From positions 3,814 through 67,813 of the forward strand of contig CAZFKN010000002.1 in assembly GCA_964519805.1 (NCBI GenBank): DNA of 64,000 nucleotides. The letters are read 5' to 3'. The notes under the pieces were generated by a model. The model saw only the letters and a program-made list of their open reading frames with translations, did not search any database and had not been told where the DNA came from. The DNA is from an uncultured Gemmatimonadaceae bacterium. GTDB lineage: Bacteria > Gemmatimonadota > Gemmatimonadetes > Gemmatimonadales > GWC2-71-9. Both the position numbers and the translations under genes were made by a program. Positions 2,309 to 49,375 of the stretch are shown here, piece after piece. Position 1 is the first letter of the stretch, and the number at the start of each line of letters is the position of its first letter.

Positions 2309-3664
2309 ATGCGGCGCCGGATGCTGGGGCTCCTGGCCGTGGGCGCCGCGGTGGGATGCGGAGGCGGAGCAGGGCGGGGGCATGGTGGCCGAACCCCCGC
2401 CCCCGTGCCCGACGACGTGCCGGCCGCTGCGTCGACGACGACCATCTACCGGGGCGTCGGACGGCTCGCCGCCGCCGACCCGCTCCCGTTCGTCGGGACA
2501 CTCGCCTTCGCCGCCGGCACCGGCGACACCGCGCTCGTCCTGCTCGGCCTCTCCCTGGACAACCGCTCTCTCAACTTCCAGCGCGAGCCGGTCGGCTATA
2601 CCGCACACTACCGGGTCGACATCACGTTGAGCCCCGAGACCGGTACGCCGCTTCAGGTCGGGCGCGAAGAGACCGTCCGCGTCGCCACGCAACCGGAAAC
2701 GGGCCGCACCGACGAGAGCGTCCTCTTCCAGCAGAATTTCCGGCTGTTGCCCGGCAAGCAGCATGTGGTGGTCAGTGTCCGCGACGTGAACTCCGGCGCG
2801 GAGTCGCGCGCCGAGGGCGATTACGAGGTGCCGCGGTTCGGGGCCGGGACGACGAGCGAGCCGATTCTGGCGTACCAGGCGCAGGGCAGGGGGAAGCGGA
2901 GCGATCCGCTCCAGCTGGTGCTCAACCCCCGAGGCGTCGTGGGCTTCGGCGGCGACACCCTGCTGGCCTACGTAGAGGGCTACGCGTTCCCGCGGGCGCA
3001 GACGGTGCCGTTCGAAGTTCGCGACGCGCGGGACAGCCTGGTCTACCGCGACTCGCTCCACTTCCGAGGCGGCCGGCCGGTCGAGAGCCAGGTGATTCGC
3101 GTCACTCCCGACAGCCTGGTGCTAGGTGAAATGCGCCTGATCGTCGGGCCCGGAGCCGGGGCCCGGCACGCCACCGCCATCGTTTCGTTCACGCCCCAGT
3201 GGCTGGTGACGAGCTACGACCAGATGCTGAGCCTGCTGCGGTATTTCCCGCCCAATCGGTACCTCGACTCGCTCCGGCACGCGGCACCAGCCGACCGCAC
3301 CCGCCTCTGGCGCGAGTTCTGGCGGACCTCCGATCCGGATCCCAAGACGCCCCAGAATGAGCAGCTCGACGAGTACTTCAGCCGGCTGGCGGCGGCCAAC
3401 GCGCAGATCAAGGACGAGGGCGTCCCCGGATGGCGCACCGATCGCGGCGAGGTCTTCATCACCCTCGGTGCCCCCGACGAGGCCACCGAGTCCGCGCCCA
3501 ATGTGTCGGCCCGCATCATCCGGTGGAGCTACTACCGCTATCGACTGACACTGTTCTTCGTCGACGAATCGGGCTTCAACCGCTACCGGCTCACGTCGCA
3601 ATCGCGGTCCGAGTTCGAGCGGGCCATTGCGCGGCTCCGGCGGGGCGGGGAAGCGCCGCCGTGA
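2309..3664 (+). CDS. GWxTD domain-containing lipoprotein
   Basis: C-terminal GWRTDRGEVFITLGAPDE motif. Lipoprotein-like signal MRRRMLGLLAVGAAVGCGG begins at ATG 2309, preceded by GGGGAG. The longest ORF starts at 2216. Confidence 0.8.
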   Translation: MRRRMLGLLAVGAAVGCGGGAGRGHGGRTPAPVPDDVPAAASTTTIYRGVGRLAAADPLPFVGTLAFAAGTGDTALVLLGLSLDNRSLNFQREPVGYTAHYRVDITLSPETGTPLQVGREETVRVATQPETGRTDESVLFQQNFRLLPGKQHVVVSVRDVNSGAESRAEGDYEVPRFGAGTTSEPILAYQAQGRGKRSDPLQLVLNPRGVVGFGGDTLLAYVEGYAFPRAQTVPFEVRDARDSLVYRDSLHFRGGRPVESQVIRVTPDSLVLGEMRLIVGPGAGARHATAIVSFTPQWLVTSYDQMLSLLRYFPPNRYLDSLRHAAPADRTRLWREFWRTSDPDPKTPQNEQLDEYFSRLAAANAQIKDEGVPGWRTDRGEVFITLGAPDEATESAPNVSARIIRWSYYRYRLTLFFVDESGFNRYRLTSQSRSEFERAIARLRRGGEAPP

Positions 3665-3669
3665 CGGCC

Positions 3670-3774
3670 GTGAGAAGTGAGAGGTAAGGAGTAAGAAGTG
3701 AGAGGGGGGCCCCGCCTGACACACGGAGCCCCCTCTTACTTCTCACCTCTTACCTCTCACTTCTCACCTCTCAC
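3670..3774. repeat. long imperfect palindrome built from heptanucleotide repeats
   Basis: Left arm 3670-3704 has five tandem 7-mers: GTGAGAA GTGAGAG GTAAGGA GTAAGAA GTGAGAG, then G5. A 19-nt GC-rich centre follows. Right arm from 3729 is C5, then TCTTACT TCTCACC TCTTACC TCTCACT TCTCACC TCTCAC. Hand pairing gives about 37 pairs with 2 G-T, 2 mismatches and 1 bulge. It starts 6 nt after the GWxTD stop and ends just before polA. Confidence 0.8.
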
Positions 3775-3788
3775 TATCTTTCCGGGCC

Positions 3789-6614
3789 ATGCCCAGCCAC
3801 TCGCCGCCCCAACTGTTCCTGGTCGACGGCTACGCGCTCATCTACCGGGCCTTCTTTGCCATGATCTCGCGGCCGCTGCGCACGGCACGGGGCGAGAACA
3901 CGTCGGCCGCCTGGGGCGCCGTGAATTTTCTCCTTCGCCTCCAGGAAAAGTATCGGCCCGACTACCTCGCCTGGGTGCTCGATGCCGGCACCTCGTTCCG
4001 CGAGGAGCGTTACCCCGACTACAAGTCCACTCGTGAGAAGCTCGATGAGGAGCTCCAGGCGGACTTCGACCGCTCGGTGGAGCGGACGCGGCAGCTGCTC
4101 GACGCGTTTCGAGTGCCTGCGGTCGAGGTGCCCGGGTACGAGGCGGACGATGTGATCGGCACGCTGGCGATGCAGGCGGCCACGTCCGGACTCGAGGCCG
4201 TGATCGTTTCGGGCGACAAGGACTTCTACCAGCTCATCGGCCCGCACGTGGCCTTGTTGAATCCCGGCCGGGGCGGTCCGGCGGCGGTTGACGAGGTGTG
4301 GGTGGATGAGACCAACGCGGCTGAGCGCCTGGGCGTCCCACCCGGCCAGGTCGCCGACTTCCTGGCGCTCGTCGGCGATACGTCGGACAACGTGCCTGGT
4401 GTGAAGGGGATCGGGGAGAAAGGGGCGCAGAAGCTCCTGGCGGAGTTCGGCGATCTCGACACGTTGCTCGCCCGCGCCGGAGAAGTCACCGCCAAGCGTG
4501 CGCGTGAAGCGCTGCTCGAGCACGCCGAGGAGGCCCGCCTCTCGCGCGAGCTAGTGACGATCCGGCGCGACGTCCCCGCCACGCTCGATCTCGAGCGGTT
4601 CGCGGCGCGGGAGCCGGATCGGGACAAGCTGGTCCAGGTGCTCGCCGAGCTGGAGTTCTACTCGCTCCTGAAGAAAGTGGATGGCCAGAGCGCCGCTGCC
4701 CCGCCCGCCGCGGCGGTGGAGCCCACGCCCGGGGAGGCCCCTACTGCGCCGCCGCCGACCCCGGCCACCCCGTCCTCGACGGCGCCGGTCGTGATCGTCG
4801 ACGACCCCGGCCTCCTGAGCGACGTGGTGGCCCGCCTGCGCAACGCCCCGCTGCTCGCGCTCGATACGGAGACCAGCTCCACCGCCCCCCGCGAGGCCGA
4901 GCTGGTCGGCCTTTCGATTGCCGCGAGTCCGACCGAGGTCTGGTACCTCCCGTTCGGGCACCGGCCGCTTGGCGGTGAGCTCGCCGCGCCGGCGCCGGTG
5001 AAGAACCTCCCGCCGCTCACGAGCCCCCTGGTGGCTCCGCTGGCGCAGCTGCTGGCCGACGCGGCGGTACCCAAGGCCGGCCACAACGTGAAGTTCGACT
5101 GGCAGGTGCTCCGCGGCGCCGGCGTCGAGCTGCGCGGGGTCGTTTACGACTCGATGCTTGCGAGCTTCATCCTCGATCCGGGGCGCCGCTCTCACGGGAT
5201 CGACACGCTGGCCCTCGAGCACCTGGGCCGGACCATGGAGACGTACGCCGACGTGGCTGGCCGGGGCAGGCGCGAAACCCCGTTTGCCGAGCTGCCGGTC
5301 CCGCGAGCGGCCGCCTATTGCGGCGCCGACAGCGCGACGGCGCTCGCGCTGCACGACTTCTTCGCCCCGCGGCTCCGGGAGACGTCGTTGGAGCCGCTCC
5401 TCGCCGAGATCGAGCTGCCGCTCGTCGAGGTGCTGGTGGATATGGAGTGGACGGGGATCGCCATCGATCGGACCGTCTTCGAGCGCCTCTCGCGTGAGCT
5501 GGGCGCCGACCTCGCGCGCTTGGAGCGGGAGATTTCACAGGCCGCGGGGAGCGAGCTGAACCTGAACTCACCGAAGCAGCTGGCCACCGTGCTGTTCGAG
5601 AAGCACCAGCTCCCCGTGCTCAAGAAGACCAAGACGGGTCCGTCCACCGACGCCGATGTGCTGGAGCAGCTCGCTGCCATGGGACACGGGCTGCCGAGGC
5701 TGATCCTCGAGTATCGGGAGCTGCAGAAGCTCAAGAGCACCTATGTGGACGCACTGCCGGCGGAGGTCAATCCCAAGACCGGGCGGATCCACACCAGTTT
5801 CAACCAGACCGGGGCCGCGACCGGGCGGCTTTCATCGTCCGACCCCAACCTCCAGAACATCCCGGTGCGCTCCGCCCGGGGCGAGGCAATCCGCCGGGGG
5901 TTCGTGCCGGCGGCGGGGTCGGTCTTTCTCGTCGCCGACTACTCGCAGATCGAGCTCCGGCTCATGGCGCATCTGTCGGGCGATCCCGGCTTTATCGAGG
6001 CCTTCCGCCAGGGCGGCGACATCCACCGCCAGACCGCGGCCCTGATCTTCGGCGTTCCACTCGCCGAAGTGACTTCGGACATGCGGGCCCGGGCCAAGAC
6101 GATCAACTTCGCGACCATCTACGGCCAGGGCGCGTTCGCGCTCTCGCGTCAGCTGGGGATCTCGCAAGAGGATGCGAAGAGCTTCATCGCCCGCTACTTC
6201 GAGCGATTCGCGGGGGTCAGAGCGTTTCTCGACCGGCAGGTGCAACTGGCGCGCGAGCAGGGGTACGTGGAGACGCTGTTCAAGCGGCGGCGCTACATCC
6301 CGGAGATCCGGGACCGGAACTACAACCTCAGAGCGTATGCCGAGCGGACCGCGCAGAACTCCCCATTGCAGGGCTCAGCCGCCGATCTCATCAAGCTCGC
6401 GATGGTGCGGGTCCATCGCGGGCTGCGCGACCGCGGGCTCGTGAGCCGCATGCTGCTGCAGGTACACGATGAGCTGGTCTTCGAGGTCCCGGCGGGAGAG
6501 ATCGAGGTCATGCGGGACCTGGTCCGGACCAGCATGGAGACGGTGGTGAAGCTGGAAGTACCGCTGGTCGTGGATATCGGGGTGGGGCCGAACTGGCTGG
6601 ACGCAAAGCGGTAA
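3789..6614 (+). CDS. polA: DNA polymerase I
   Basis: 941 aa with a 5'-3' exonuclease N-terminus (LVDGYALIYRAFFA), a 3'-5' exonuclease domain (ALDTETSS) and family-A polymerase motifs (DYSQIELR, QVHDELVFE). Contains a Pro/Ala-rich linker. Confidence 0.95.
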   Translation: MPSHSPPQLFLVDGYALIYRAFFAMISRPLRTARGENTSAAWGAVNFLLRLQEKYRPDYLAWVLDAGTSFREERYPDYKSTREKLDEELQADFDRSVERTRQLLDAFRVPAVEVPGYEADDVIGTLAMQAATSGLEAVIVSGDKDFYQLIGPHVALLNPGRGGPAAVDEVWVDETNAAERLGVPPGQVADFLALVGDTSDNVPGVKGIGEKGAQKLLAEFGDLDTLLARAGEVTAKRAREALLEHAEEARLSRELVTIRRDVPATLDLERFAAREPDRDKLVQVLAELEFYSLLKKVDGQSAAAPPAAAVEPTPGEAPTAPPPTPATPSSTAPVVIVDDPGLLSDVVARLRNAPLLALDTETSSTAPREAELVGLSIAASPTEVWYLPFGHRPLGGELAAPAPVKNLPPLTSPLVAPLAQLLADAAVPKAGHNVKFDWQVLRGAGVELRGVVYDSMLASFILDPGRRSHGIDTLALEHLGRTMETYADVAGRGRRETPFAELPVPRAAAYCGADSATALALHDFFAPRLRETSLEPLLAEIELPLVEVLVDMEWTGIAIDRTVFERLSRELGADLARLEREISQAAGSELNLNSPKQLATVLFEKHQLPVLKKTKTGPSTDADVLEQLAAMGHGLPRLILEYRELQKLKSTYVDALPAEVNPKTGRIHTSFNQTGAATGRLSSSDPNLQNIPVRSARGEAIRRGFVPAAGSVFLVADYSQIELRLMAHLSGDPGFIEAFRQGGDIHRQTAALIFGVPLAEVTSDMRARAKTINFATIYGQGAFALSRQLGISQEDAKSFIARYFERFAGVRAFLDRQVQLAREQGYVETLFKRRRYIPEIRDRNYNLRAYAERTAQNSPLQGSAADLIKLAMVRVHRGLRDRGLVSRMLLQVHDELVFEVPAGEIEVMRDLVRTSMETVVKLEVPLVVDIGVGPNWLDAKR

Positions 6615-40598: not shown

Positions 40599-41903
40599 TC
40601 AGGTCGGAACGCGGTCCCGCGCGCCTTCGGGCGCCGCAGCGGGGTGCCAAGCCTCGGTGATCAGCCGGGCACCGCGTTGATAGGTCAGGTAAGCCCACGC
40701 CCATTCGATCAGCACGAACACGCGGTTCCGGAACCCGATCAGGAAGAAGATGTGGATGAAGATCCACAGGAGCCACGCGACGAATCCGCCGAAATGAAGT
40801 CGGCCGATGTCAGCGACAGCCTGGGCTCGTCCGATGACCGCGAGCTGTCCTTTGTCCCAGTATCTGAAGGGCTGCCGGGATCGACCGCCGAGATCGGCCC
40901 GGATGGCCCGTGCGGCGTACCGCCCCATCTGAATAGCCACCGGGCAGATGCCGGGCAGCGTGCGATCGGCCTCGGCGAACGCCGCGGCGTCGCCCAGGAC
41001 GAAGACTTCCGGGTGCTCAGGGATGGTGCAGTCAGGCCGCACCGGGACCCGCCCCTGACGGTCGAGCGGCACACCAAGAGTCTTCAGCAGCGGACTCGCG
41101 ACGTTGCCCGCGGCCCAGATCACGGTGTTGGTGGGGATAGTCCAGCCGGCGGCGCGAACGGCGCCCGGTCGGACGTCCGTCACGAAGGTGTCCGTGCGGA
41201 CGTCCACGCCGAGCTTCCGCAGCTCGCGCTTCGCTTCGGCACTGAGGGTCTCCGGGTACGACGGGAGAATCCGCGGCCCCCCCTCGAGCAGCAGCACGGT
41301 GGCGTCGCGCGGGTCGATGTGCCGGAAATCGCGGCGCAGGGCGAAGCTGCGGATCTCGGCCACGGCTCCCGCCATCTCGACCCCGGTCGCGCCGCCGCCG
41401 ACGATCACGAAGGTGAGATCGGCGTGCCGCTTTACCGGATCGACCTCGCGCTCCGCTCGCTCGAACGCCGTGAACACGCGGCGCCGGATCTCGAGCGCAT
41501 CCTCCAAGCTCTTGAGGCCGGGCGCGAGACGCTCCCATTCGTCGTGCCCGAAATAGCTGTGGCGGGCACCGGTGCCCACCAGCAGGTAGTCGTAGGGAAG
41601 TCGAGTGCGGTCCGCAAGGTCGACAGCCCGGGCGGCGGTATCGACCCGGGTCACCTCAGCCATGACGACATCGACGTTCTTCTGGCGGCGGAAAATGGAG
41701 CGAATCGGCGCGGTGATGTCGGCCGGATTGAGACCGGCGGTCGCGACCTGGTACAACATCGGCTGGAAGAGGTGATAGTTCTTCCGGTCGACCAGCGTCA
41801 CCCGGACGCGAGCGCCCCTGAGGGCACGGGCCGCGTAGATTCCCGCGAACCCGCCGCCGGCGATGACGACGTGCGGTATCGGCCGTTCGCTCGAGGCCCT
41901 CAC
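40599..41903 (-). CDS. type II NADH dehydrogenase (NDH-2)-like FAD oxidoreductase
   Basis: VVIAGGGFAG and VIVGGGATGVE dinucleotide motifs with a C-terminal membrane-anchoring helix. GTG 41903 overlaps the stop of the upstream small ORF (GTGA). Confidence 0.85.
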   Translation of the reverse strand: MRASSERPIPHVVIAGGGFAGIYAARALRGARVRVTLVDRKNYHLFQPMLYQVATAGLNPADITAPIRSIFRRQKNVDVVMAEVTRVDTAARAVDLADRTRLPYDYLLVGTGARHSYFGHDEWERLAPGLKSLEDALEIRRRVFTAFERAEREVDPVKRHADLTFVIVGGGATGVEMAGAVAEIRSFALRRDFRHIDPRDATVLLLEGGPRILPSYPETLSAEAKRELRKLGVDVRTDTFVTDVRPGAVRAAGWTIPTNTVIWAAGNVASPLLKTLGVPLDRQGRVPVRPDCTIPEHPEVFVLGDAAAFAEADRTLPGICPVAIQMGRYAARAIRADLGGRSRQPFRYWDKGQLAVIGRAQAVADIGRLHFGGFVAWLLWIFIHIFFLIGFRNRVFVLIEWAWAYLTYQRGARLITEAWHPAAAPEGARDRVPT

Positions 41904-42160
41904 AGACCCATGGTCTCCCGCCGCCACCGCGCGAACCGGACCACGTCGTCCACCGGCGGCACGGCGTTCTCGTCGGCGTAGGCGGTGTACATCCGCCAGC
42001 GGAGGTACTCGCGGTCGGGGAGCGGCAGGAAGGGAGACCGCCGCCACCAGTCCCGCCGCCGAAATGCCCACGCAGCCCCGACCAGATCACGGGCGAGCCG
42101 CGGGTTGATCAGGGCCCGTGCGGTGAGGCGCGCTGTGAGCGAGAACCAGGTGGCGGCCAT
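41900..42160 (-). CDS. hypothetical Trp/Arg-rich small protein (86 aa)
   Basis: ATG start. The stop overlaps the NDH-2 start. A TATCTT box lies 6 nt upstream. No recognisable family. Confidence 0.4.
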   Translation of the reverse strand: MAATWFSLTARLTARALINPRLARDLVGAAWAFRRRDWWRRSPFLPLPDREYLRWRMYTAYADENAVPPVDDVVRFARWRRETMGL

Positions 42161-42203
42161 CGCGATAAGATAATTGCGGTGGCTGGGGTATATTCCCCGG
42201 GCT

Positions 42204-43352
42204 ATGGCCGCCGCATCGGTTTCGGCGCCGCCCGCGCGGCAATTCCGGGACGAGTTCCCGATCTTCCGCCATGCGATCTATCTGAACAGCTGCTCGCTCG
42301 GTCCGCTGTCCCGGCGCTCACGCATTCGGGTTGCGGAGTATCTCGACCTGTGGGAGCGGCGCGGTGCGGCGGCTTGGTACGATGTCTGGTGGGCGGCGCT
42401 GGGCGAGTTGCGCGAGCGCTACGGCCGGGTCGTCGGGGCCGACGCCGCGAATATCGCCCTGCACCCGAACATCTCCGGCGCGCTCTCGGCCGTCGCCGAA
42501 GCGTTGGACTACCGAACCCGACCCAAGGTCGTGGTAACCGGGCTCGACTTCCCGACCATTGCCTATCAGTGGCTGGCCAAGGCGGGTGAGGGCGTCGAGG
42601 TCCAGCTGGTGGAGAGCGCGGACGGCGTCCAGGTGCCGTTGGAGCAGATCGAGCGCGCGGTGGACAGCCGCACCGCGCTGGTGGCAACCAGCCACGTGTT
42701 CTTCACCTCCGGCGCGATACAGGACGTCGCCGCACTCGCCGGCATCGCCCATCGGAAGGGTGCCCTGCTGCTGGTGGACGGGTACCAGGCCACGGGCCAG
42801 CTTCCGGTGGACGTGCGACGGCTGGACGTCGACTTCTACTGCGCCGGCGGGCTCAAGTGGCTGCTTGGCGGATCCGGAATCGCGTTTCTGTACGTGCGAC
42901 CAGAACTCGTGACCGGGCTCGCGCCCCGGGCCACCGGTTGGTTCGCCCATCGGGAGCAGTTCCTATTCGACCCGCGGAGACTCGTTCCTCACGACGATGC
43001 CCGTCGATTCGAGGCGGGAACCCCGGCGATGGCGTCGGTCTATGCGCAGTTAGGCGGCCTCGACGTACTCGAGCAGGTCGGAATCGAGGCGATTCGGCGC
43101 GCCACGATGGCACTCGCGGAGGACCTGATCGAGCGGGCTCGGGAAGCCGGGCTCGCGTGCAAGGTCGCGGCGACAAAGGAGGCTCGGTCGGGGATCGTGA
43201 TGCTGTCGAGTGCGGATCCCCCCGGGGACGTGCGCCGGCTCGGCGACGCCGGCATCATCGTCGATGCCCGACCGGGCCACATTCGCGTCTCACCCTATTT
43301 CTACAATGTGCCGGATGATCATCTCGCGCTGGTGGAGCTTCTGAAGTCGTGA
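42204..43352 (+). CDS. class-V-fold PLP-dependent enzyme (no desulfurase cysteine)
   Basis: PLP lysine motif AGGLKWLLG. The C-terminal RPGHIRVSPYFYN lacks the catalytic Cys seen in the SufS of this window (RAGHHCAQP). I prefer ATG 42204; the longest ORF starts at TTG 42174. Confidence 0.8.
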   Translation: MAAASVSAPPARQFRDEFPIFRHAIYLNSCSLGPLSRRSRIRVAEYLDLWERRGAAAWYDVWWAALGELRERYGRVVGADAANIALHPNISGALSAVAEALDYRTRPKVVVTGLDFPTIAYQWLAKAGEGVEVQLVESADGVQVPLEQIERAVDSRTALVATSHVFFTSGAIQDVAALAGIAHRKGALLLVDGYQATGQLPVDVRRLDVDFYCAGGLKWLLGGSGIAFLYVRPELVTGLAPRATGWFAHREQFLFDPRRLVPHDDARRFEAGTPAMASVYAQLGGLDVLEQVGIEAIRRATMALAEDLIERAREAGLACKVAATKEARSGIVMLSSADPPGDVRRLGDAGIIVDARPGHIRVSPYFYNVPDDHLALVELLKS

Positions 43353-44113
43353 CCGAAACGTCGCCCCGCGGCCCGCATCGTCCCGGCGAAGCGAAGCCCC
43401 TCACTGAAGACGAGGTTCTCCTCGAGAGCCCGTCGCCCCGGGAAGTCGAGCTGCACAAGGCATCCGACTCCTGGCGGGCGCTCCGCATCCTGGGCGAATT
43501 CGTTTGGGGGTTCGAGAACCTCGCCGACGTGAGCGGCGGCGTCTCGATCTTCGGCTCGGCGCGCACTCGGCCGGAGGATCCCGACTATCAGGCCGCCACG
43601 GAAACGGCGCGACTCCTCTCGAAGGCGGGCATCCCTGTCATCACCGGCGGCGGTCCCGGCATCATGGAGGCGGCGAACCGCGGCGCGTACGAAGCAGGCG
43701 GCCTCTCGATCGGTTGCAATATCGAGCTCCCGTTCGAGCAGGGGACGAATGCGTACGTCACGCGGAGCCTGATGTTCAAGTTCTTCTTCGTCCGGAAGAT
43801 GATGTTCGTGAAGTACGCCAGCGCGTTCATCGTGTTCCCCGGCGGCTATGGGACGCTGGACGAGTTGTTCGAGGCCCTGACACTGATCCAGACGGGCAAG
43901 GTGAAGCATTTCCCGGTCATTCTCTTTGGTCGGCGCTATTGGAGCGGCATGGTGGACTGGCTTCGGGAGACGGTGGCGGCCGAGCGCAAGGTCAACGTGG
44001 AGGATCTCGAGCTCTTCCGTGTGACGGATGACCCCGCCGAAGCCGTGCAGCTCGTTATCGCCGCGCGCAACGGGCAGCCGGCGAGGAAGAGGAAGGAGAA
44101 GCCCAGGTCATGA
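43349..44113 (+). CDS. LOG-family (TIGR00730) nucleotide phosphoribohydrolase
   Basis: [14 protein letters not shown] and [12 protein letters not shown] motifs. GTG overlaps the upstream stop (GTGA). Confidence 0.85.
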
Positions 44114-45279
44114 CACGCCCGTCGGCGGCATACCTGCGTGGTCAGCGGATCGATCCCCAAGCGACGACCGGGCGGGAAACGGCCGCCGACCTGATCGACA
44201 ACGCGTTTCTCGCCTACAATGCCGGGCGCCTTCGTGAGGGGTGCGCGCTCTTCTCCCAGCGGATGCTCGCGTCGGACGTTACCGTCGGCATGAGCCTGAC
44301 CGGCGCGATGACGCCGGCCGGCCTCGGGATGAGCTGCCTCATCCCGCTGATGGAAGTCGGGTTCGTCGACTGGGTGATCTCAACCGGTGCGAATCTCTAT
44401 CACGACGCGCACTTCGGGCTCGGCCTGGCCATGCATCGCGGGACACCGCACGCGGATGACGTGGAGCTGCGCGACAAGGGCGTGGTCCGGATCTACGACA
44501 TCTTCTTCGACTACTCGGTGCTCTTGTCCACGGACGCATTCGTCCGCGAGGTCTCGGCCCGGGCAGAGTTCCAGCGACCCATGAGCAGCGCAGAGTACCA
44601 TTGGCTCCTGGGGAAGTACCTGCTGGAGCGCGAGCGGGCCCTCGGCCTGACCCGCCGCTCGGTACTGGCCGCAGCCTACCAGCTCGACGTACCGGTCTAC
44701 ACCAGCTCGCCGGGGGACAGCTCGATCGGGATGAACGTGGCCGAGCAGGCGCTGGCGGGGAGCAAACTCCGGTTCGACGTCAGCGCCGACGTGAATGAAA
44801 CTGCGGCGATCGTTCTGGAGGCGAAGCGGTCGGCGGGGAAGAGCGCCTGTCTCATCATGGGCGGCGGCAGTCCCAAGAACTTCATGCTCCAAACCGAACC
44901 CCAGATCCAGGAGGTGCTCGGCATCGACGAGCGCGGGCACGACTACTTCCTCCAGATGACCGATGCGCGTCCGGACACCGGCGGACTCTCCGGCGCTACG
45001 CCGGCGGAGGCGGTGAGTTGGGGCAAGATCGACCCGGACCAGCTGCCCGGAACGGTGGTGGTCTACTGTGACAACTCGATTGCCCTACCGCTACTCACGG
45101 CCTACGCACTGGCGCGGCACGAGCCCCGCCCGCTCAAGCGTCTGTACGGCAAGCGCGAGGCGATGCTGCGCCGGCTGATCGACGAGTATCACGCGGCACT
45201 CGCGTCCCGGGACCGTCGAGCCGAGGCGTCGCTCGCTGAGACACAACCGGCCGGAGGGGCCAAAGCGGTCGGTCGGTGA
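44110..45279 (+). CDS. deoxyhypusine synthase-like protein
   Basis: DHS family pattern, including GGGSPKNF (position of the catalytic Lys) and [12 protein letters not shown] overlaps the upstream stop (ATGA). Confidence 0.85.
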
Positions 45280-46784
45280 CGGGAAAGACCGGTGCGGCCC
45301 CGCCGGGGCCGAGCCTCACCACCGCCTACCGGTGGTACGCGCTCGGCCTCCTCGCCCTCATCAACCTCCTCAACTACCTCGACCGCAACGTCATCTTCGC
45401 GCTGTTCGAGCCGATCAAGCGCGACCTGGGGCTGACCGATACCCAGCTCGGTTGGCTCGGCTCGGCGTACATCCTGGTCTTCTCGGTGGCCGCGCTGCCC
45501 TTCGGCGTGATCAGCGATCTCCGCTCCCGGCGGGCGGTGATTGCCGCCGGCGTGACCGTCTGGAGCGCGTTCACCGCGCTCGGGGCGGCCGTCCGGAACT
45601 TCGGGCACCTGTTCATCTGCCGGGCGGCCGTCGGCATCGGAGAGGCAGCGTTCGGTCCGGCGGCGGCGTCGCTAGTGGCAGACTACTTCCCCGGCAAGGG
45701 TCGCGCGGCGGCCATGGGAATCCTGTCGTCGGGGATCGCGCTTGGCGGGGTGCTTGGTATCGGATTGGGCGGCGTGCTCGAGAAGCACTACGGTTGGCGG
45801 GTCGCCTTTCTCGTCGTCGGGATCCCGGGCATGCTCTGCGCCGTAGCCGCGGCGCGGCTCGTGGACCCGACCCGCCGGCCGTCGACGGTCACGCTCCGCG
45901 AGTTCTTCGCCGACCGGGACGGCGCCGTTGCCATGCTCCGCCGGGACTTCCCGTGCACAATGATCGGTGTGGCCGTCGGTTTCGGCACCGCCATCGCGCT
46001 CGGTAGGGTCTACGACTCGAAGCTCGACGTTGCGGTGCTCGGAGCGGCGGTGGGACTGGGGCTCGCCGGCGACATTCTGCGGTGGGCTCGGCTCATCCGT
46101 AGCGGCAAGATCGGCACCACGCCGCTCGGCGGCGAGTTGGGGGGCGCCATCGACGACATCGTCGGCGCGGTGAAGCGGGTGCTCGCCACGCCCACCCTGG
46201 TGTACGTCTTCGTGGCGGGCGCCATGATTTCATTCGGCATGAACGGGATCGTAGGCTGGGGACCGACCTTCATTGCCCGAGAGCTGGGTTTGACCTCGTC
46301 CCAGGCCGCGACGCTGCTCGGCAAGTGGGGCCTGCTCGCCGGGACGGCCGGCACGTTGTTCGGTGGGGGCCTCGCGGACTGGCTGCGGCGCTACACCGAC
46401 CAGGCCCGGGTCATCACCGTGGCACTCGGCCTCCTGATCGGCGCGCCGGCCGCGATCTGGCTGCTCACGGTCCGGGACCAGACCATCTTCATTCCCGTGT
46501 TCTTCGGCGCGTTCTTCTTCCTCTCGTGGTACAACGGTCCGCTGACCGCGGTGATCTTCGACGTCGTGCCGGCGCGGGTGGGCGCTACGGTCGCAGGTGC
46601 CTACCTGCTGTTCATCCATCTGGCCGGTGACGCCATCGCATTCCCGCTGGTAGGGGCGCTCTCGGATCGCTTCGGGATCGACCGCGCGGTGTTCGTGCTC
46701 CCCTCGATGGCCCTGCTCGGCGGACTCGTGGTGCTCGGCGCGATCCGGACGGTCGGCGCGGACATGAGGCGGGTGACGCAGTAG
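45276..46784 (+). CDS. MFS transporter (Spinster-like)
   Basis: About 12 TM segments. N-terminal LNYLDRNVI motif, typical of the Spinster-like MFS subgroup. GTG overlaps the upstream stop (GTGA). Confidence 0.85.
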
Positions 46785-46820
46785 CCTCAGTCCTCCCGCC
46801 AGGGGTCCGGCGGTGATCCG

Positions 46821-47174
46821 CTAACGCGCCGCCCGGTAGACCAGGTCGAGCAGCTCGGCGTACATCGCCTCGGTGCGCTCCGGATCACCCGAGCGGATCG
46901 CGCTGGTCGCGCAGTGACGCAGGTGGTTGTCCAGCAGCGTGCGGCCCGCACTCCGGAGGGCTTCCTGTACCGACGACACCTGCACCAGCACGTCGGCGCA
47001 GTAGCGCTCCTCTTCCACCATCTTCTGCAGGCCCCGCACCTGCCCCTCGATTCGGCGAAGCCGCGTGAGCAGCGCCTGTTTCGTCTCGGGCGCGAGGGCG
47101 ACCGCATGGACCCCGTCTCCCGGGCGGAGGCACGGGCACGAGGCCGCTTCCGCGGCCATCGGTTCTCCGGTCAT
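46821..47174 (-). CDS. csoR: CsoR/RcnR-family metal-sensing repressor
   Basis: [21 protein letters not shown] core with Cys-His-Cys ligand positions (RYCADV ... HLRHC). ATG overlaps the copA stop. Confidence 0.85.
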
Positions 47175-49375
47175 GCGCGCTTGAGCCTCAGGCTGTTGGT
47201 CACCACGCTCACACTGCTGACCGCCATCGCGGCCGCTGCGAGCGCCGGGGTGAGCAGGATCCCGAACGCCGGATAGAGCGCACCAGCGGCGACCGGGATC
47301 CCGATGACGTTGTAGACGAACGCCCAGAACAGGTTTTGCCGGATCACCCGCATTGCGCGGCGCGCCAGCCCGACGGCGTGCACCACGCCGAGCAAGTCCC
47401 CACGCATGAGCGTGATCCCGGCCGTTTCCATGGCGACATCGGTGCCGGTCCCGATGGCGATGCCCAGGTCCGCTTGTGCGAGCGCGGGCGCATCGTTGAG
47501 TCCGTCCCCCACCATCGCCACGACGCGGCCGGATTCCTGGATCTGTCGCAGCGCTTCGAGCTTCCGGTCTGGAAGGATCTCGGCCACGACGCGCTCGATT
47601 CCCACGGCGCGGGCCACACTCTCCGCCGTACGTCGATCGTCGCCGGTCAGCATGACGATCTCGAGTCCGAGCGCCTTGAGTTCCGCCACCGCCTCCCGAC
47701 TCGTGGGTCTCACCGGGTCGGCAATGGCAACGAGCCCGCCGATCCGACCGTCGACGGCGACGTACACGGGCGTCGCGCCCTGAGCCGCCAGCCGCTCGGC
47801 ATCGCGATCGACGGCGTCCACAGGCAGCCCCCGCTCCTCCATCAACCGCCGGCTGCCGACGAGGACGTTGTGGCCGGCAACGCGACCGGTGACACCCCGC
47901 CCGGCGTGCGCGCTGAACGCCTCGGGATCGACCAGCTCGAGCCGGCGGTCCAGCGCGGCCCTCACGATCGCATCGGACAGCGGGTGCTCGCTCAGCCGCT
48001 CCAACGACGCGGCCAGCCGAAGCGATTCGTCGGCGAGGCCATTGTACGTCACACCGGGCCGGCCCTCCGTGACGGTGCCGGTCTTGTCCAGCGCGACGAC
48101 GTCAAGCTCGGCTGCCCGCTGGAGGGCATCGCCGCCCTTGATCAGCGCACCGAGCTCCGCTCCCCGACCCGTGGCCACCATTACCGCCGTCGGCGTCGCG
48201 AGCCCCATGGCGCAGGGACAGGCGATGATGAGCACGGTGACCGCGGAAACGAGCGCGTGGAGATACCGGGGCTCCGGACCTAGTGCGTACCAGAGGCCGA
48301 AGGTCACCACGGCTATGGCGATGACGATCGGCACGAACACGGCCGAGATCCGGTCGGCCAGGCGCTGGATGGGCGCCTTGGCTCCCTGGGCACTTCGCAC
48401 CAGTGCGATGATGCGGGAAAGCACGGTGTCCTGCCCGACCCGCGAGGCGCGGATCTGCAACGACCCGTACCGGTTGAGCGTGGCGCCCACCACTTCGTCA
48501 CCTACCCCCTTTACGACCGGGGCGGGCTCGCCCGTGAGCATCGACTCGTCGACCGTAGTCGTCCCCTGGACCACGACCCCGTCCACCGGAATCCGCTCGC
48601 CCGGGCGCACCAGCAACACGTCTCCGACGCGCACATCGGCGATGGGCACCTCGATTTCGGTTGCCTGGCGAAGCAGGTGGGCGGTTTCCGGACGGAGGCC
48701 CATCAAACCGCGAATGGCGCCGGACGTTCGCCGCTTGGCCCGGACCTCGAGCAAGTTGCCGAGGAGAACCAGCGCGATGATCGTCGCGACGGCCTCGAAA
48801 TAGACTTGCGGCATCACGCCGCGCGCCGCCACCCAACGAGAGGCTGCGGTCATGAAGAGGCTGAAGCCGAACGCCGCGCCCGTGCCGACGGCGATGAGCG
48901 TGTTCATGTCCGCCCCGCCGTGGCGAAGGGCGGCCCACGCCCGCGTGTAGTAGTGCCGGCCGCTCCAGAAGACGACGGGGAGCGTGAGCCCCAGCTCGAG
49001 CCAGCGCATGGTGTCGCTCTGCGGATGGCCGACGATCATCATCGCGACGGCAGGCACGACGGCGACCCAGAACTTGCGCACCAGCATGGTGCTCTCGCGA
49101 TCGCGCTCCTGGTCCTGAAGCTGGAATGCCGCCTCGGCGGTCGCGCCCGCCTGCGGCAACTCGGCCCCGTAGCCCGTGTCGCGGATCGCCGCCACCAGAC
49201 CCTCGGGGGAAATCGTCGCGGGATCGAAATCGACCGCAGCTTCGCCGGTCATCAGGTTCACCGATGCAGACGCGACTCCGGGAGTCTGCTCCAGGGAATG
49301 CTGCACCCGCGCGCTACACGCGGCGCAGGTCATCCCCGACACGGGGATGGTGCGATGCTCGAGCGTCGTCGTCAC
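47171..49375 (-). CDS. copA: copper-translocating P1B-type ATPase
   Basis: N-terminal HMA domain GMTCAACS, transmembrane CPC motif ([10 protein letters not shown]), DKTGT phosphorylation site, [10 protein letters not shown]. Confidence 0.95.

Follow-up and report, generated by a model that had tools for sequence, protein, structure and literature searches.

Homospermidine synthesis by SpeY was worked out between 2024 and 2026 (Kobayashi et al. 2024, PMC10981699; Li et al. 2026, PMC13625781). SpeY builds N1,N9-bis(guanidino)homospermidine (G44G) from two agmatines, and SpeY enzymes of diverse phyla yield G44G unaided in E. coli (PMC13625781, PMC10981699). The bacterial SpeY homologues tested were all G44G producers (PMC13625781), and the chemistry neither releases nor consumes a nucleotide (PMC10981699). 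The described clusters hold polyamine genes only, with speY next to ADC and speB or next to aguA/aguB. The text of Li et al. 2026 (PMC13625781) mentions neither LOG proteins nor transporters, and no Gemmatimonadota.

In this study, we analysed a stretch of 64,000 nucleotides (the window) from a soil Gemmatimonadales bacterium, in which four plus-strand genes of the ORF list form a single operon at 42204-46784 (Table 1). They encode a kynureninase-like PLP enzyme (gene 1), a LOG-family protein (gene 2), SpeY (gene 3) and a Spinster-like MFS transporter (gene 4). Gene 3 shares its enzyme family and its catalytic Lys and Glu with the SpeY/CdmS systems (Anabaena SpeY; T. thermophilus TTHA1570; PMC13625781, PMC10981699), and the genome, like theirs, encodes arginine decarboxylase, AIH and agmatinase-type hydrolases. 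Unlike the described clusters, however, the window's speY is translationally coupled to a type-II LOG gene and accompanied by the PLP enzyme and the MFS transporter, whereas the usual SpeY partners (ADC and the G44G ureohydrolase or iminohydrolase genes speB or aguA/aguB) are absent from the four-gene operon. We think it probable that this real, co-translated operon is a mosaic particular to its lineage rather than a single pathway, with SpeY as a guest in a LOG operon. SpeY itself is known; its lineage-specific pairing with LOG is the remaining puzzle.

Table 1. Features of the four-gene operon and its upstream region (window positions)
Feature	Position	Strand	Remark
Divergent intergenic region, 43 bp, AT-richer	42161..42203	.	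likely promoter region (sequence read)
PLP gene	42204..43352	+	alternative TTG start at 42174
PLP/LOG start-stop overlap	43349..43352	+	GTGA; context tcGTGAcc
LOG gene	43349..44113	+	PGGYGTLDE motif
LOG/SpeY start-stop overlap	44110..44113	+	ATGA; context tcATGAca
SpeY (DHS-like) gene	44110..45279	+	GGGSPKNF, EAVSWGKI motifs
SpeY/MFS start-stop overlap	45276..45279	+	GTGA; context cgGTGAcg
MFS gene	45276..46784	+	MFS_1

An earlier note on this DNA had described the four genes as linked by overlaps at 43349, 44110 and 45276, and the junction reads bore this out: they gave GTGA, ATGA and GTGA, so each start overlaps the preceding stop by 4 nt. At the LOG/SpeY junction, a Shine-Dalgarno-like GGAAGGAGAAG lies directly 5' of the ATG at 44110. 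The sequence TATATT (42189-42194) stands 9 nt 5' of the ATG at 42204, so a leaderless transcript is possible. A sigma-70 consensus scan gave no promoter site, and its terminator-like matches fell within genes; an Rfam scan of 41500-47300 gave no riboswitch and a single chance snoRNA match (E 0.76). Upstream, the four genes adjoin a divergent NDH-2 operon; downstream, they are followed by CsoR and Cu-ATPase genes in convergent orientation. The four gene identities given in the earlier note were correct (Pfam assigned Aminotran_5, Lysine_decarbox/LOG, DS and MFS_1), and the motifs it quoted were present, namely PGGYGTLDE in gene 2 and GGGSPKNF and EAVSWGKI in gene 3.

Gene 3 scored 552.4 bits against NF001980 (SpeY, homospermidine biosynthesis protein; equivalog cut-off 450) over profile positions 1-349 of 350, and matched Pfam DS (PF01916) over its full length (4.8e-68). 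The earlier note could not match the operon to any described pathway, a view that is therefore out of date. The catalytic K306 (in WGK) and the Glu six residues earlier (E300) were invariant in 32 orthologues and aligned with archaeal DHS structures. L293, 13 residues before K306, was likewise invariant in the 32 orthologues and sits at the position of human Asp316. In CdmS, Leu286, 13 residues before Lys299, replaces this spermidine-binding Asp of human DHS (PMC10981699), indicating that gene 3 has the same hydrophobic replacement, a Leu, as CdmS. The position of human Asp243 (Phe204 in CdmS) falls in a gapped stretch of the alignment. These results identify gene 3 as a member of the SpeY family and, by family membership, as a predicted G44G synthase that would carry out the first committed step on the agmatine-dependent route to homospermidine. 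True deoxyhypusine synthase was rejected as an identity (NF002006, 225 bits vs 434; NF002630, 202 vs 364; TIGR00321, 172 vs 304), as was a further family model with a cut-off of 500 bits, on which gene 3 reached only 160 bits. A different gene in G026, a genome from one of the order's sister families, reached 558 bits on that model and does not adjoin LOG.

The remaining steps of this route could be carried out by proteins encoded on other contigs of the genome, where we found SpeA (824 bits), an adjoining aguB-like/aguA-like pair below the equivalog cut-offs and an agmatinase (192 bits vs a cut-off of 174). The genome also encodes an arginase. SpeA would supply agmatine, SpeY with bound NAD+ and the catalytic K306 would join two agmatines to G44G, and the aguA/aguB-like pair or the agmatinase-family protein would trim G44G to homospermidine. 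Each of the SpeY-positive genomes that were cross-checked between the 151-genome tables has an agmatine deiminase-fold (AIH) or arginase-fold gene. Among the 151 genomes, however, these genes did not track SpeY; both are also present in SpeY-less genomes, so their presence shows only that the homospermidine pathway is possible.

Gene 2 matched PF03641 (Lysine_decarbox/LOG) at 4.9e-36 (124 bits vs a cut-off of 27) and TIGR00730 at 146 bits (cut-off 96). Its best PDB matches were the type-II LOG structures 5ZI9 (8.9e-79), 1WEK (7.3e-69) and 5WQ3 (1.5e-67), whereas short type-I LOG structures matched at 1e-8 to 1e-11. Compared with C. glutamicum Cg1261 (5WQ3, PMC5379747), T. thermophilus TT1465 (1WEK) and 5ZI9, gene 2 is about 55-60% identical, as judged by eye from the alignments, and it has in common with them the N-terminal extension typical of type-II LOG and intact GGGxGxM and PGGxGTxxE motifs. 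In gene 2 these read GGGPGIME and PGGYGTLDE, and both were invariant across 32 LOG orthologues. Gene 2 is thus a predicted type-II LOG, a nucleoside 5'-monophosphate phosphoribohydrolase of the TIGR00730 family. These type-II LOGs have no reported tie to polyamines, and an operon that pairs LOG with a DHS homologue is peculiar to Gemmatimonadota.

Gene 1 matched Aminotran_5 (1.5e-38) and, over its full length, Pseudomonas fluorescens kynureninase (1QZ9, 2.4e-31) as its top PDB match; its Atlas neighbour clusters carry KYNU_C. It shares with kynureninase/SufS-type class-V PLP enzymes the fold, the PLP lysine (GGLKW) and a kynureninase-like C-terminal motif. It differs from them in falling below both family cut-offs and in lacking the SufS cysteine: as the earlier note had recognised, the desulfurase Cys is missing, since GHIRVSP has Arg at the Cys position of the SufS GHH-Cys motif. 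A cysteine desulfurase (SufS/IscS/NifS) was rejected on this Arg and on TIGR01979 (111 bits vs 475), and a kynureninase in the sense of TIGR01814 on its score (85.4 bits, below the 246 cut-off). No NCBIfam model reached its cut-off for gene 1, nor did gene 4 reach any curated NCBIfam model. Gene 4 matched MFS_1 (8.2e-49), and its nearest solved relatives are the bacterial Spinster homologue HnSpns (6E8J, 5e-25) and human SPNS2 (3e-24), to which only the N-terminal half aligns (~150-200 residues, within residues 5-207). A polyamine or an amphipathic amine would be a candidate substrate.

The LOG-SpeY adjacency was found again at 74 of the 76 assessable related loci, so the arrangement of the genes is beyond chance. 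By our manual reading of coordinate tables, it occurs in ~81 of 86 SpeY-positive genomes of five families (~95%) and persists even where the flanking genes differ. The LOG-SpeY-MFS order is also present in the genus Gemmatimonas (L092). The PLP gene lies upstream of LOG at 38/70 related loci (~54%) and the MFS gene 3' of the DHS-like gene at 50/70 (~71%). Loci with room on both sides carried PLP+LOG+MFS (24), LOG+MFS (19), PLP+LOG (11) or LOG only (6). As to whether the four genes are syntenic elsewhere, a point raised in the earlier note, the LOG/DHS-like pair held up but the full set is not fixed, being found at 24 of 64 loci. SpeY is missing from a PLP-LOG-MFS arrangement in G071 and G134 and from LOG-MFS in G026, with the MFS gene directly 3' of LOG in all three. 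Conversely, SpeY-MFS stands without LOG in G170, G132 has SpeY with no LOG match anywhere in the genome, and G037, G141 and G166 have LOG with no DHS-like gene at all. LOG and SpeY are thus independent of each other, and an obligate joint pathway is unlikely because each gene is found without the other. The operon is a mosaic in which the PLP and MFS genes are optional and LOG, near-universal in the order (orthologues in 72/72 genomes of family f1 and 31/31 of f2), is the anchor. Within it, gene 2, with its catalytic motifs intact, would cleave nucleoside monophosphates and anchor the operon, genes 1 and 4 would be optional add-ons, and SpeY, as a guest, would share the expression of LOG.

The SpeY homologue search gave only close Gemmatimonadales relatives, and a representative search supplied relatives outside the phylum. 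The nearest of these have ADC genes (pyruvoyl or AR-fold) and genes of the arginase fold as neighbours; LOG was next to SpeY in 0/6 of them. The neighbourhood co-occurrence of the DHS-like/LOG pair, which the earlier note had singled out, is accordingly seen within Gemmatimonadota and in none of these outside relatives. In three outside genomes that have a type-II LOG gene as well as a DHS-like gene, the two are on different contigs or ~100-260 kb apart by record coordinates.

Nearly all genomes that lack SpeY have a distant DHS paralogue (28% identity; one of its type lies at 3009-4025 on the minus strand of L121), which occupies the slot directly after LOG in two phylogenetically separate lineages. 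In the lineage of the G105/P0276 type, the NDH-2 and CsoR/ATPase flanks match those of the window, and in that of g52 (G099, G101, G116) the gene upstream of LOG is the one that f2 SpeY loci also have there. This recurrence in separate lineages suggests that the after-LOG slot is under selection for co-expression, whatever the mechanism. Repeated in-situ displacement after LOG would be unexpected for a purely historical position. To argue that LOG is unrelated to SpeY because it persists in the absence of SpeY is weaker once a substitute paralogue has been found; the argument's sole remaining base is the three genomes with LOG and without any DHS-like gene.

Two other readings of gene 3 were weighed against G44G synthesis. 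The enzyme might use other substrates, such as spermidine and putrescine (as in plant HSS and eukaryotic DHS), and follow another route to homospermidine or another polyamine, a reading that the name of NF001980, merely 'homospermidine biosynthesis protein', would allow. We consider this very unlikely, given that all tested bacterial SpeY homologues made G44G (PMC13625781), that L293 stands where Leu286 of CdmS also replaces the spermidine-binding Asp316, and that the genome holds SpeA and candidate G44G hydrolases. It is scarcely credible that the protein is not a polyamine enzyme and instead modifies a protein lysine, hypusine-like, on EF-P or another factor. In its favour stand the conserved DHS fold and the conserved catalytic Lys/Glu, but the true-DHS equivalog models stay far under their cut-offs (225 vs 434 and 202 vs 364 bits), the nearest relatives lie in ADC/agmatinase clusters and the cited literature reports no bacterial case.

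The earlier note had proposed a dedicated pathway for a modified polyamine- or nucleobase-derived metabolite. This is unsupported, since the PLP and MFS genes are present at some loci only and LOG is separable from the DHS-like gene, but the refilling of the slot after LOG by a different DHS paralogue, at least twice, leaves it a small probability. Because SpeY forms G44G alone in E. coli, gene 3 also fits the case that the note itself had set against its proposal, an ordinary homospermidine enzyme independent of its neighbours. The same idea, put as a true functional module of LOG, the DHS-like enzyme and the MFS transporter that is peculiar to Gemmatimonadota, strikes us as unlikely. Such a module could, for example, tie the making or export of polyamines to nucleotide turnover, or it could produce and export an N-alkylated nucleobase or a modified polyamine. 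It would account for a pair kept in ~95% of SpeY-positive genomes despite rearranged flanks, for the translationally coupled junctions of the window, for the presence of the MFS gene after both DHS types, with SpeY before it in G170 and the paralogue before it in G059 and G105, and for the two independent SpeY replacements that keep a DHS-family gene after LOG. Against it, LOG and the DHS-like gene are separable within the phylum (G132, G170, G037, G141, G166, and g27 and g51, where the paralogue is far from LOG), and their linkage was not found outside it. In f2, LOG and SpeY are usually separated by 230-300 nt (by 42 nt at a single locus), indicating loose coupling there, and SpeY chemistry involves no nucleotide release or consumption (PMC10981699). 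No LOG-DHS fusion was present among 10 long or chimeric DS proteins, which contained an intein, MFS read-throughs and unrelated fragments. Complex prediction from the SpeY and LOG alignments scored 0.00/0.00, which gives no verdict and is evidence neither way.

The mosaic reading, with SpeY as a guest of LOG, places SpeY in the operon of a nucleotide hydrolase across a soil phylum that has received little study. A functional LOG link would set type-II LOG proteins in the context of a pathway for the first time; otherwise the locus is a clean case of an operon gene displaced in situ more than once. A bolder proposal, which we hold to be quite doubtful, is that the position after LOG is selectively kept for a DHS-family enzyme (SpeY or the paralogue), that LOG, this enzyme and the MFS transporter are one physiological module that either links the synthesis or export of polyamines to the breakdown of nucleotides or makes a nucleobase-polyamine hybrid, and that the paralogue clade is a third class of bacterial homospermidine/G44G synthase. 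The paralogue, which replaces SpeY genome by genome, would lend itself readily to the G44G assay already established in E. coli.

The unit under study, at window positions 42204-46784, lies in a Gemmatimonadales MAG (3.24 Mb, 98.6% complete; the window has about 68% G+C). The four overlapping genes described in the earlier note were confirmed: start and stop codons overlap by 4 nt at each junction (GTGA, ATGA and GTGA, in order), and all the motifs quoted there were found in the translated genes. Because a divergent operon with NDH-2 lies upstream and convergent CsoR and Cu-ATPase genes lie downstream, the unit comprises exactly four genes. The divergent intergenic region spans only 43 bp (42161-42203), and TATATT at 42189-42194, 9 nt ahead of the ATG at 42204, suggests that the first gene may be leaderless from this start. 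A sigma-70 consensus scan detected no consensus promoter at the operon, and an Rfam scan of window 41500-47300 detected no riboswitch.

Coordinates of the operon genes (window positions), the divergent paralogue X and the aguB-like/aguA-like pair
Feature	Location	Strand	Description
Gene 1	42174/42204-43352	+	PLP enzyme; ORF call, alternative starts
Gene 2	43349-44113	+	LOG; ORF call
Gene 3	44110-45279	+	SpeY/DHS-like; ORF call
Gene 4	45276-46784	+	MFS; ORF call
X of genome G105	L121:3009-4025	-	DHS-family protein, 338 aa, 28% identical to SpeY
Other loci with X-clade genes	L127, L128, L129-L140, L143-L145		Same divergent clade
aguB-like gene	L098:265-1428	+	Own genome, contig C21; 312 bits vs equivalog cut-off 410
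aguA-like gene	L098:1462-2514	+	Own genome, contig C21, adjoins aguB-like gene; 284 bits vs cut-off 382

The assignments proposed for the four genes were upheld. The class-V-fold PLP enzyme of gene 1 (Aminotran_5, 1.5e-38) reached none of the curated NCBIfam families, aligned over its full length with its best solved relative, kynureninase 1QZ9, and carries Arg in place of the SufS catalytic Cys, consistent with the claimed lack of the desulfurase Cys. Gene 2 is a type-II LOG: it exceeds the TIGR00730 cut-off, and its matches to 5ZI9, 1WEK and 5WQ3, all type-II structures, range from 1e-67 to 1e-79. Both LOG signature motifs are invariant across 32 orthologues. Gene 4 is an MFS protein whose best solved relatives, the Spinster homologues HnSpns and SPNS2, align with the N-terminal half only.

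With 552 bits against NF001980 (cut-off 450), the NCBIfam model named 'homospermidine biosynthesis protein', gene 3 is identified as SpeY, a bacterial homologue of deoxyhypusine synthase (DHS); as a true DHS it was rejected by NCBIfam scoring, far below every true-DHS model. T. thermophilus CdmS (TTHA1570) forms N1,N9-bis(guanidino)homospermidine (G44G) from two agmatines with NAD+ (PMC10981699). SpeY homologues from diverse phyla each make G44G from two agmatines when expressed as the sole enzyme in E. coli, and G44G yields homospermidine via a SpeB-type ureohydrolase, or via an AguA-type iminohydrolase and then an amidase (PMC13625781). With this chemistry known (PMC10981699, PMC13625781), the claim that the operon matches no described pathway did not hold. 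Gene 3 retains the catalytic Lys K306 and Glu E300, and its Leu 13 residues before the Lys corresponds to CdmS Leu286, whereas human DHS has the spermidine-binding Asp316 at this site. In P0125 (645 aa), a SpeY homologue with 70% identity, an intein of some 280 aa sits at this substrate-loop Leu, separating GGL from SGATP.

The window's own genome encodes SpeA (824 bits), an agmatinase (192 bits vs 174) and an arginase on other contigs. Since the aguB-like and aguA-like genes both score below their equivalog cut-offs, this pair could plausibly represent G44G iminohydrolase and C44C amidohydrolase forms rather than canonical agmatine enzymes. Outside the phylum, the nearest relatives of SpeY (43-53% identity) adjoin AR-fold or pyruvoyl arginine decarboxylase and arginase-fold genes.

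Among 80 Gemmatimonadales loci, LOG lay directly upstream of SpeY in 74 of the 76 that were assessable, comprising 70 scripted counts and 4 loci outside the script threshold only through a LOG-SpeY overlap of 8-20 nt. The PLP gene was present in 38/70 loci, the MFS gene in 50/70 and the full four-gene form in 24/64, indicating that the synteny holds for the LOG-SpeY pair and not for a fixed four-gene set. Across 151 evenly sampled Gemmatimonadota genomes, with adjacency judged by eye from coordinate tables, about 81 of the 86 that carry SpeY, spread over five families, had LOG next to it. The exceptions were genus g44 (SpeY-MFS, with LOG elsewhere in the genome) and genomes G132 (LOG not found), G133 (a 0.7 kb gap) and G174 (SpeY at a contig edge). 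Outside this clade, none of six SpeY-family representatives (43-67% identity) had LOG beside SpeY, and in three genomes with both, the two genes lay on different contigs or, from record coordinates, roughly 100-260 kb apart. Type-II LOG was present in all 72 family f1 and all 31 family f2 genomes sampled, 21 of them without SpeY.

Examination of what follows LOG in SpeY-less genomes revealed the order PLP-LOG-X-MFS in G105, X being a divergent DHS paralogue. It retains the GGG and E..WGK motifs with the catalytic Lys intact, falls below every NCBIfam cut-off, and belongs to a clade whose sole annotation is 'deoxyhypusine synthase family protein'. A search with X found this clade in 28 of the 151 genomes, almost exactly those without SpeY (10/10 SpeY-less f1 and 8/11 SpeY-less f2 genomes), and SpeY/X switches occurred even inside genera g46 and g14. 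Within the sample, X and SpeY co-occurred only in G121 and G133 (also in G021, from the relatives search), and both were absent from G037, G141 and G166. Relatives 70-76% identical to X stand alone in Sandaracinus and Phycisphaerales. The only polyamine-type context found for the clade was in G102 (family f6; L137:2886-6924), where a SpeA-type arginine decarboxylase gene and an arginase-fold gene converge on X with a 24-nt gap. The X clade is a putative functional substitute for SpeY and may constitute a third class of homospermidine/G44G synthase.

Metagenome contigs with an 88%-identical X run NDH-2, PLP-LOG-X-MFS, CsoR and Cu-ATPase, and their MFS is part of a fusion with an Rce1-like domain. 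The flanking gene families and their order match those of the window, so SpeY was displaced by X in situ. On these contigs, LarC-like (Ni_insertion) and LarB-like (AIRC) genes lie ahead of the PLP gene (L143:1459-4122), and the transporter's place is taken by a 1144-aa protein bearing the Rce1-like (CPBP) domain (L143:7019-10453). In f2 genus g52 (G099, G101, G116), X of a different subclade lies 117-122 nt after LOG, and LOG is preceded by the divergent 469-aa gene known from f2 SpeY loci. A maximum-likelihood tree assigned the two forms of X found next to LOG to subclades that lie well apart, A with Sandaracinus and B with g27, g51 and f6, and a very long branch separates both from SpeY and CdmS; with SpeY, three DHS-family lineages have therefore held the slot after LOG. 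Mosaic operons in which genes were displaced in situ have been described. The repeated displacement here argues that expression from the LOG operon is selectively favoured.

The operon is a variant of the known SpeY cluster and not a new pathway. The earlier reading, a pathway making or exporting a modified polyamine or nucleobase metabolite, is supported for the gene identities and LOG/SpeY synteny only. We think it probable that a known SpeY step is hosted in a LOG-anchored mosaic operon. That LOG and the DHS-family gene form a real functional module appears rather improbable. An obligate two-enzyme LOG/DHS-like pathway is unlikely, because SpeY-family enzymes function alone in E. coli, a nucleotide is neither substrate nor product in SpeY chemistry, and SpeY is found without LOG in G132, g44 and all outside phyla. 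It is also unlikely because LOG occurs without any DHS-like gene in three genomes of 96-100% completeness, X lies far from LOG in most of the genomes that have it, with PLP-LOG-MFS left intact (g27), and in f2 LOG and SpeY are usually separated by 230-300 nt (by 42 nt at one locus). The points of interest are the LOG-DHS-family linkage and the candidate third DHS clade.

DHS-like matches about 35% identical to SpeY were also observed away from LOG in families f7 and f10 and in genome G026 of family f3 (L105:5950-6950). The G026 gene is a CdmS-type SpeY by score (NF002699, 558 bits vs 500), and an MFS gene directly follows LOG in this genome.
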